64,000 nucleotides of DNA, from the NCBI GenBank assembly GCA_037431425.1, contig GCA_037431425.1_4129.1. One strand, written 5' to 3'. The notes below the pieces were generated by a model that worked only from the letters and a program-made list of their open reading frames with translations, was not told the origin of the DNA and did no database searches. This DNA is from a phage. Made by a program: the position numbers and the translations under genes. Below, piece by piece: positions 7,633-8,006 of this stretch (within the stretch, counting starts at the first letter, position 1; the number at the start of each line of letters is the position of its first letter).

Positions 7633-7661
7633 TTGACTAAATAGTTCAGTACTGATATAAT
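7633..7661 (+). promoter_or_regulatory. promoter TTGACT-N17-TATAAT with AGTACT in spacer
   Basis: third copy of the CTTGACTAAATAGTTCAGTACTG box. Confidence 0.7.
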
Positions 7662-7667
7662 GAATTC

Positions 7668-8006
7668 CACAATCAGACGTATATGGTGTAAGTTACGTCG
7701 ATGCTATCCAGAACAAGATCTCTGGTACTCTAGGAAGTGGTGAATGTTAACCTAGACGGGTTTGATAATTGGACGATAGGCAATTATTACTTGACTAGCA
7801 GGTTGAAACTAGAGGTGACAGTCCTTCACCAAACTGGAAAGCCGGATGGACTTTTATTTAAAAGGGTAAGGCGTGGAAATATGTTTACTGTAGTTGCTTT
7901 TAGTAGCCTGTACGCCCCACGTCAAGGTAGTCGAAAGGCAAGTTAAAACGGGTGGTTATAAAGCTGAATTAACAGCGGCGTTTAAAAGCGTCACCATCCA
8001 TTTTTT
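7668..8006 (+). ncRNA. candidate structured RNA of about 340 nt, class unknown
   Basis: strong promoter, no SD-led ORF, visibly higher GC than flanks, local hairpins (GGTGA-CAGTCCT-TCACC; CTAG..CTAG), ends in weak hairpin plus T7 run. Confidence 0.4.

Follow-up and report, generated by a model that had tools for sequence, protein, structure and literature searches.

What is made from a stretch of some 340 nt that stands behind a strong promoter in a phage tRNA island and holds no convincing gene? The question is raised by positions 7663-8000 of a 64,000-nt phage sequence (GenBank assembly GCA_037431425.1, contig GCA_037431425.1_4129.1), referred to here at its full length as the window, which is 96-98% identical to Asteriusvirus jumbo phages including 121Q, PBECO4 and SP27 (blastn against a database of 50,697 phage records). 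A preliminary description of the window took this interval for a single promoter-driven, structured non-coding unit. The promoter-driven, structured and non-coding character is upheld, while the single RNA gives way to two: the interval of ~340 nt is a pair of independent RNA modules, RNA A (~190 nt, 7663-7852) and RNA B (~134 nt, 7866-7999), joined by a U/A-rich linker (UUUAUUUAAAAGG, 7853-7865), all on the + strand, as are the other features of the interval. Judged by sequence comparison, RNAs A and B are structured, non-coding and horizontally exchanged genes, in which compensatory substitutions maintain both folds. We give a probability of roughly 60% to a reading of the interval as a non-coding transcription unit that belongs to the tRNA island, with a strong host-type promoter and two independent structured, mobile, trans-acting RNA genes.

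RNA A consists of six hairpins (H1-H6) and two pseudoknots (PK1 and PK2) that tie down both termini. A covariance model, R1, built on the nested part of this structure after by-eye comparison of lineages, yields a single window copy (219 bits) and a further 20 distinct homologues, 21 in total. In the alignment of these homologues, standard pairs occupy 92.0% of cells at paired positions, compared with 79.9% in shuffled alignments and 25-41% with slid partners. Double-sided changes occur in 27 of 49 pairs (15.4 ± 2.0 in shuffles), and the covariation score of 0.351 (0.141 in shuffles) is reached by none of 500 shuffles. These counts include the pseudoknots, both of which show covariation, and are conservative, since H1, H2 and H4 are shifted by one or two columns in the Aeromonas rows. 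The same hairpins are recovered when the subdomains of each lineage are folded alone, Aeromonas included. Covariation and conservation in relatives, both named in the preliminary description as checks on an RNA, come out in its favour for RNA A, whose structure, pseudoknots included, is kept by compensatory changes across the 21 distinct homologues. G-U pairs are confined to the + strand, on which the tRNAs are encoded too, and they fix the assignment of RNA A to that strand. When the full 349 nt are folded as a single sequence, neither strand stands out (z -1.3 and -1.1); thermodynamics alone would have missed the structure.

At the 5' end, CCAC (7667-7670) forms PK1 with GUGG (7737-7740) in the loop of H3. 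Its first pair occurs as CG (15 sequences), GC (five) or AU (one), and the two strands occur as CCAC/GUGG, GCAC/GUGC and, by eye, CUAC/GUAG in the uncultivated virus genome (UViG) L008. H1 (7672-7702) pairs AUC-A-GACGUA with UACGUC-GAU below a loop containing the conserved GGYGYA, and six of its nine pairs change on both sides, with stem variants such as AUCAGCGUA/UACGCUGAU in Mm5 and ACUAAAAUA/UAUUUUAGU in the first of two copies in the AT-rich phage contig L026. H2 (7708-7725, CCAGA...UCUGG) is variable in length as well as in sequence (CCG..CGG, CCUU..AAGG, UCAGA..UCUGA). H3 (7729-7756), which pairs UCUAGG with CCUAGA and carries the 3' strand of PK1 in its loop, shows double-sided change in five of six pairs, with 99% of cells paired. 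H4 (7764-7788) joins GAUAAUUG with CAAUUAUU, replaced by GGUAGU/ACUACC in Aeromonas phages and by GAUGUUUU/AAAACAUU in L026, around the invariant loop GACGAUA. H5 (7795-7812) pairs CUAG with CUAG below the loop CAGGUUGAAA (pattern CAG-NN-U-N-AAA), and its pair 156-171 occurs as UA (17 sequences) or AU (four). H6 (7814-7830), GGUGA with UCACC around the 7-nt loop CAGUCCU, is a hairpin that the preliminary description had already picked out by its DNA letters (GGTGA-CAGTCCT-TCACC), and it is real.

The loop of H6 also provides the 5' strand of PK2 (GUCC, 7821-7824), which pairs with GGAC (7848-7851); the latter marks the 3' end of RNA A. At one position of PK2 the pair is GC in 11 sequences, AU in six, GU in two and UA in one, and at the next it is UA in 17 and CG in four, giving the variants GUCC/GGAC, ACCC/GGGU, GCCC/GGGC, AUCC/GGAU and UUCC/GGAA. 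The unpaired blocks that do not vary are GACGAUA in the H4 loop, UUGAC..GCAG, GAGGU and the H5 loop pattern. A candidate seventh helix (CUGG, 7834-7837, with CCGG, 7842-7845) was rejected, being unpaired or gapped in six lineages and showing no covariation.

RNA A is hosted by jumbo 121Q/RaK2-like phages, T4-like Bragavirus, Aeromonas phages, T5-like Novosibvirus and metagenomic contigs, a spread that takes in Straboviridae, Demerecviridae and the jumbo genera Asteriusvirus and Alcyoneusvirus. By blastn, window positions 7663-7850 are 85-91% identical in Bragavirus (PM2, Pm5461, vB_Mm5 and SdyM006) and likewise in Novosibvirus (Proteus phages 1 and 2), and the core of RNA A is also present in the Aeromonas T4-like phages 65, avDM6, CC2, AS-zj and ZPAH1. 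Four pattern scans of IMG/VR and one metagenome scan contributed the loci L008, L021, L023-L026 and L055; none of the 80 loci listed for a loose RNA A pattern is matched by the covariance model. A search of 5,426 E. coli genomes finds nothing that matches the interval of RNAs A and B, and a 26-nt core motif of RNA A is missing from 185,579 bacterial and archaeal species genomes (one genome per species).

Most RNA A homologues adjoin the 3' end of a tRNA. The order on one strand is tRNA-Gly, RNA A, tRNA-Asp in PM2 and SdyM006, and the T5-like Proteus phage 1 has tRNA-Leu, RNA A, tRNA-Ser. In L026, RNA A is followed by tRNA-Arg(ACG) and a second, divergent RNA A. Flanked by tRNAs, RNA A starts with AAUU 0-3 nt past the CCA end and stops 10-15 nt short of the next tRNA. 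In the Aeromonas phages avDM6 and 65 it lies 5' of tRNA-Thr, and in avDM6 a tRNA-Pro and a 54-nt gap precede it. Phages 65, avDM6, CC2 and AS-zj carry a conserved extension of ~85 nt with two long hairpins between RNA A and tRNA-Thr (L003 2584-2669, with homologues in L013-L016), which diverges in ZPAH1 and is unrelated to RNA B.

RNA B is predicted to fold into a long bulged hairpin (P1, 7870-7876 with 7917-7923, with P2 and P3 inside), a GAAA hairpin (7930-7939) and a 3'-terminal element, module D. Across eight sequences of the whole RNA, 97.6% of cells are paired and six pairs have changed on both sides, so that covariation supports the RNA B structure modestly, and less than it does that of RNA A. 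Window positions 7866-8000 are found in the 121Q and RaK2 groups only. The 5' hairpin of RNA B recurs in a 650-nt ORF-less region (ORF, open reading frame) of Kuravirus phages. In Kuravirus XT32 (L005 1230-1875) this region is a GC-rich mosaic, one segment of which is the RNA B hairpin; other segments are 80-95% identical to N4-like Gamaleyavirus and Klebsiella phages, some of them adjoining tRNA-Cys, and a GenBank 'hypothetical protein' is annotated on its minus strand.

Module D (7950-7999) is a Y-shaped three-way junction. Its closing stem has 7 bp, and it contains an invariant UAUAAA and two hairpins, one of 4 bp with the loop AAUURA and one of 3-6 bp with the loop UAAA. The module is exactly 50 nt in every copy, and among seven distinct sequences 95.8% of cells are paired and six pairs show double-sided change. 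One base (A) past it, a run of seven U residues (U7, 8001-8007) may serve as a termination or 3'-end signal; the next ATG is at 8024. The preliminary description saw a weak hairpin plus T7 here: the T run is as described, and the hairpin is the closing stem of module D. Runs of U4-U7 lie within 1-3 nt 3' of most copies of module D, though not in L055, an unrelated 44-kb viral contig (UViG) with one copy. RaK2-like phages have three copies, one at the end of RNA B, one at the end of a further RNA, C, and one alone between a tRNA and a promoter. Other matches to the search patterns for RNA B and module D have no matching flanking sequence or structure. RNA C of RaK2 (L007:2835-2994) is 160 nt long, begins with AAUU right after the second tRNA, ends in module D and abuts RNA A; the GenBank record of RaK2 lacks it, together with two tRNA genes detected by Rfam (2304-2388 and 2758-2830).

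The two modules come apart in related phages. RaK2 has a full promoter between RNA A (L007:3001-3187) and RNA B (3245-3375), in the place of the linker, and the metagenomic relative L023 has a separate promoter for each RNA. Within the genus Asteriusvirus all four states occur: the window has promoter, A, B and gene; EJP2 has promoter, RNA A and tRNA-Ser; JNE01 has promoter, B and gene, with RNA B directly 3' of the promoter; and G17 has neither RNA.

What follows RNA A, or the interval, varies by lineage (tRNA-Asp, tRNA-Ser, tRNA-Glu, tRNA-Thr, a promoter, RNA B, phrog_38341 or phrog_21500), with no conserved protein gene among these features. This bears on an alternative in which the unit, or at least RNA B with module D and U7, is a cis-acting 5' leader or attenuator that controls read-through or translation of gene 8024, much as a riboswitch or a terminator dependent on a protein would. 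As no promoter was found between module D and the ATG at 8024, its transcription must pass through A and B. U-rich runs lie 3' of module D and often 3' of RNA A too, and module D stands directly before a Shine-Dalgarno (SD) sequence and an ORF in L055 and before a small ORF in RaK2, L023 and L024. A leader or riboswitch would, however, hold a constant position before one homologous gene or gene class, and no such position was found: the downstream genes are unrelated among lineages, and tRNAs, a promoter or RNA B come after RNA A, never a conserved gene. Module D, moreover, also occurs alone between a tRNA and a promoter, and as the end of RNA C right before RNA A, and a simple terminator scan makes no call on the branched three-way junction with its U7. 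We consider a cis-acting role for the unit unlikely. Since downstream features differ by lineage and RNA A of L023 is a transcription unit of its own, action in trans is the likelier mode.

The invariant loops and junctions of RNA A (GACGAUA, UUGAC..GCAG and GAGGU), set between covarying stems and combined with two pseudoknots, make up a pattern of the ribozyme or aptamer type, and on these grounds a specific macromolecular or catalytic interaction is suggested. RNA A might accordingly be a ribozyme or a tRNA-binding RNA in phage tRNA processing, for instance by self-cleavage at the CCA/AAUU junction or by docking to the tRNA elbow through T-loop-like motifs. It begins exactly at tRNA 3' ends, and its H5 loop may fit the T-loop pentad pattern, U-N-A-A-A. 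Set against this, no ribozyme, RNase P, T-box or group I family of Rfam matches even at E values up to 10, while Rfam readily detects a real group I intron in the related contig L024; self-cleavage at the junction would give the tRNA a 2',3'-cyclic phosphate end; and RNA A is also found with its own promoter in a unit that has no tRNA. RNase E prefers A/U-rich sites, which the CCA/AAU junction resembles, and the same junction flanks T4 rnaD and rnaC, so that processing by host enzymes would suffice. We hold this explanation to be quite improbable.

Conservation of the region as DNA, as the target site or hitch-hiker of a homing endonuclease or as a degenerate tRNA remnant with no RNA function, could explain why RNA A is 85-91% identical between unrelated phage families and patchily present within one genus, and genes for HNH and Seg-type endonucleases do adjoin it in Muenster, SdyM006 and L024. 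Compensatory double substitutions in every helix and both pseudoknots, together with strand-specific G-U pairs, are not expected of a DNA site or a decaying gene, and neither ARAGORN nor the tRNA model finds a tRNA remnant; the explanation is very hard to sustain.

The only sizeable + strand ORF of the interval is a GTG-initiated frame of 69 aa (7737-7946) that has no SD sequence. The frame does not survive in most homologues, and from the same GTG it ends after 2-17 codons in eight of them (RaK2, Muenster, KP13-7, PM2, SdyM006, Mm5, L023 and L026), and no ORF is conserved among the homologues of the interval, in agreement with the earlier view that the ~340 nt lack an SD-led ORF and that this one is spurious. 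That it encodes a small basic protein can be set aside, even though the ORF is present in the window and in 121Q and several GenBank records annotate hypothetical proteins there, for it crosses the junction of two modules that occur separately, a junction that carries a promoter in RaK2-like phages and L023, and its substitutions obey base-pairing and not codon logic. Most GenBank records of the 121Q/PBECO4 type annotate one to three 'hypothetical proteins' over RNAs A and B, which are very likely artefacts.

The preferred reading, that of two trans-acting RNA genes in one transcription unit, starts from the promoter. The interval lies in a tRNA island with tRNA-Ser and tRNA-Arg at 6153-6322 and tRNA-Ser, tRNA-Met and tRNA-Asn at 8426-8826, all on the + strand. 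As the preliminary description stated, a third copy of a strong promoter precedes the interval: it is of the sigma-70 type (7633-7661), with TTGACT, a 17-nt spacer and a TG-extended TATAAT, compared with 16-nt spacers in the two upstream copies (6844-6871 and 7253-7280). The region is also GC-richer than its flanks, as had been noted, with 42.3% in 7663-8000 compared with 29.8% and 30.7% in the flanking genes and 33.7% in the whole window. Host RNA polymerase would transcribe RNAs A and B early in infection from this strong RpoD-type promoter; RpoD-like promoters are concentrated in what is presumed to be the early region of CBB, a related phage (PMC5259590). Where RNA A is flanked by tRNAs, it would be trimmed to its pseudoknotted ends by host tRNA-processing nucleases, a step suggested by its start at the CCA/AAUU junction and its stop shortly before the next tRNA. 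The pseudoknotted ends would protect the termini and allow a stable RNA to accumulate, and module D with its U run would mark or protect the 3' end of the unit, at RNA B. The RNAs would then act in trans, most likely as a decoy, sponge or scaffold that binds a conserved host component, which the most parsimonious guess would place in translation or tRNA metabolism.

Several points weigh against this reading. The distinct homologues of RNA A number no more than 21 and form clusters in the phylogeny, which makes statistics from shuffling too favourable, and the evidence for RNA B comes from few and closely related sequences. The transcript ends, stability and abundance of both RNAs are inferred from sequence. 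The -10 box ends 1 nt before RNA A, and by the usual rule transcription would start near 7668/7669, within the 5' strand of PK1, half of which would be removed; PK1 may thus be missing from the window copy of RNA A, or else this copy may rely on transcripts that read through from promoters at 7253 or 7443. In the window, the RaK2 group, L023 and L055 an ORF follows directly after module D, which could conceivably have a cis-regulatory or attenuator role. There is also no conserved neighbouring protein gene.

Some further features of the island and of related loci were observed. Beside the -35 and -10 boxes, a spacer sequence (AAATAGTTCAGTACTG) is conserved in the island promoters at 6844-6871, 7253-7280, 7633-7661 and 8392-8420, and its core (TTCAGTACTG) recurs ahead of small RNA and tRNA genes in RaK2-like phages (L007 and L024) and in L023, which suggests an additional recognition element. 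In the gap that separates the tRNAs from the first promoter copy, the window has three tandem, overlapping, paralogous ORFs of 54 aa, each starting with MTHEEWM (6345-6831). A 69-nt tRNA-like element at 5490-5558, with a 7-bp acceptor-like stem (GCGGCAU/AUGCCGC), a canonical T arm (GUCGA-UUCGAUU-UCGAC) and an aberrant remainder, is called by neither ARAGORN nor Rfam and has a 97% identical copy in L023; it may be what the preliminary description listed as its first ORF-less unit. On the minus strand of L023 (reverse complement, 866-1035) lies a promoter-driven, ORF-less RNA of ~165 nt, RNA E, with a 14-bp closing stem (GGTGAGTAACATTG/CAATGTTACTCACC), no Rfam match and no copy in the window. 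A repeat of ~125 nt, present in two copies in L026 (2696-3001) upstream of the first RNA A on the A-coding strand, is 71% identical to an ORF-less gap of RaK2 (L007 1886-2000) and is probably a further shared non-coding RNA family.

Non-tRNA RNAs that lack an explanation have been on record from phage tRNA islands ever since the species 1 and 2 RNAs of T4 were described, and ROOL and GOLLD, which sit near such islands, have lately joined them (PMC12286853). To these RNA A adds a compact, well-bounded and strongly covarying RNA common to T4-like and T5-like phages and, more distantly, Aeromonas phages. The hosts concerned (E. coli, Klebsiella, Proteus and Aeromonas) are genetically tractable, and the natural variants with both RNAs, RNA A, RNA B or neither in one genus make the purpose of such RNAs directly testable. 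Annotation is also corrected, as dozens of GenBank records place hypothetical proteins across RNAs A and B. A bolder proposal, to which we give little credence, is that RNA A represents a new class of catalytic or tRNA-recognising RNA, passed along with tRNA genes between lytic phages of enterobacteria and Aeromonas that are not related to one another. It would act on the host tRNA pool, the processing of tRNAs or a defence system directed at tRNAs, and tRNA islands would be platforms for undescribed RNAs (A-E and others).

How do RNAs A and B compare with known RNAs? The Rfam scan proposed in the preliminary description was run with Rfam 15 (4227 models, including tRNA, tmRNA, RNase P, 6S, group I intron, ROOL, GOLLD, riboswitches and ribozymes) and matched no known family: there is no match at the gathering score in the window interval or the homologous loci, and the best scores at E values up to 10 are 9-19 bits, from unrelated families only. 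ARAGORN finds no tRNA or tmRNA in the interval. RNase P RNA was considered from the ~340-nt size and from short strings that resemble its CR-I motif (GGAAAGCCGG, 7836-7845) and its CR-II motif AGGGUGAAA (GGUAAGGCGUGGAAA at 7865-7879, and CAGGGUGAAAC in the Aeromonas H5 loop). It was rejected: no RNase P model of Rfam matches at E values up to 10, the CR-I-like string is missing from the Aeromonas copies, A and B are separable, and no long-range helix of the P4 type can be drawn. A group I intron or an intron-containing tRNA was likewise rejected, no such model matching in the interval. The RaK2-like metagenomic contig L024 does have a group I intron (2460-2692; Intron_gpI, 104 bits), which lies in the anticodon loop of a tRNA(CAT). 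No description of RNAs A or B was found in the literature; a catalogue of ~10,000 viral RNA candidates (PMC10690425) could hold fragments of them.

The small stable RNAs of T4, which the preliminary description invoked, are matched in position and not in homology. Like the species 1 and 2 RNAs (rnaC and rnaD), RNA A is encoded in a phage tRNA cluster on the tRNA strand and starts directly after a CCA end (CCA/AAU in T4, CCA/AAUU for RNA A). The T4 genes are non-essential accessory genes in a region mobilised by the homing endonuclease SegB (PMC2330249). The resemblance is positional, with no homology in sequence or structure: comparison of rnaC and rnaD with the interval by blastn (word size 7) gives nothing above chance, model R1 has no match in the T4 tRNA region (L004), and T4 rnaC ends in a canonical T-arm-like hairpin, an arm that RNA A lacks, having two pseudoknots instead.

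ROOL and GOLLD are complex, pseudoknotted non-coding RNAs of phages and prophages, often encoded beside tRNA islands, with no identified protein partner and no known function, and many GOLLD members exceed 800 nt (PMC12286853). They form homo-oligomeric cages, whereas nothing suggests oligomerisation of RNAs A and B. ROOL is ~580 nt long, and the two families are some three to four times longer than RNA A (190 nt; RNA B, 134 nt). They are known mostly from Firmicutes, Actinobacteria and environmental samples, unlike RNAs A and B, which are from phages of Enterobacterales and Aeromonas. H-type pseudoknots cap RNA ends in the tRNA-like structures of plant viruses and in exonuclease-resistant RNAs, where their geometry protects the termini. 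RNA A has a similar arrangement, with the H6 loop bound to the 3' tail (PK2) and the 5' end bound to a hairpin loop (PK1); unlike the tRNA-like structures, it has no CCA end, and no tRNA-like core was detected in it. Taken with these likenesses and differences, RNAs A and B are in our best reading new RNA families of a known kind, the stable RNAs of phage tRNA islands.

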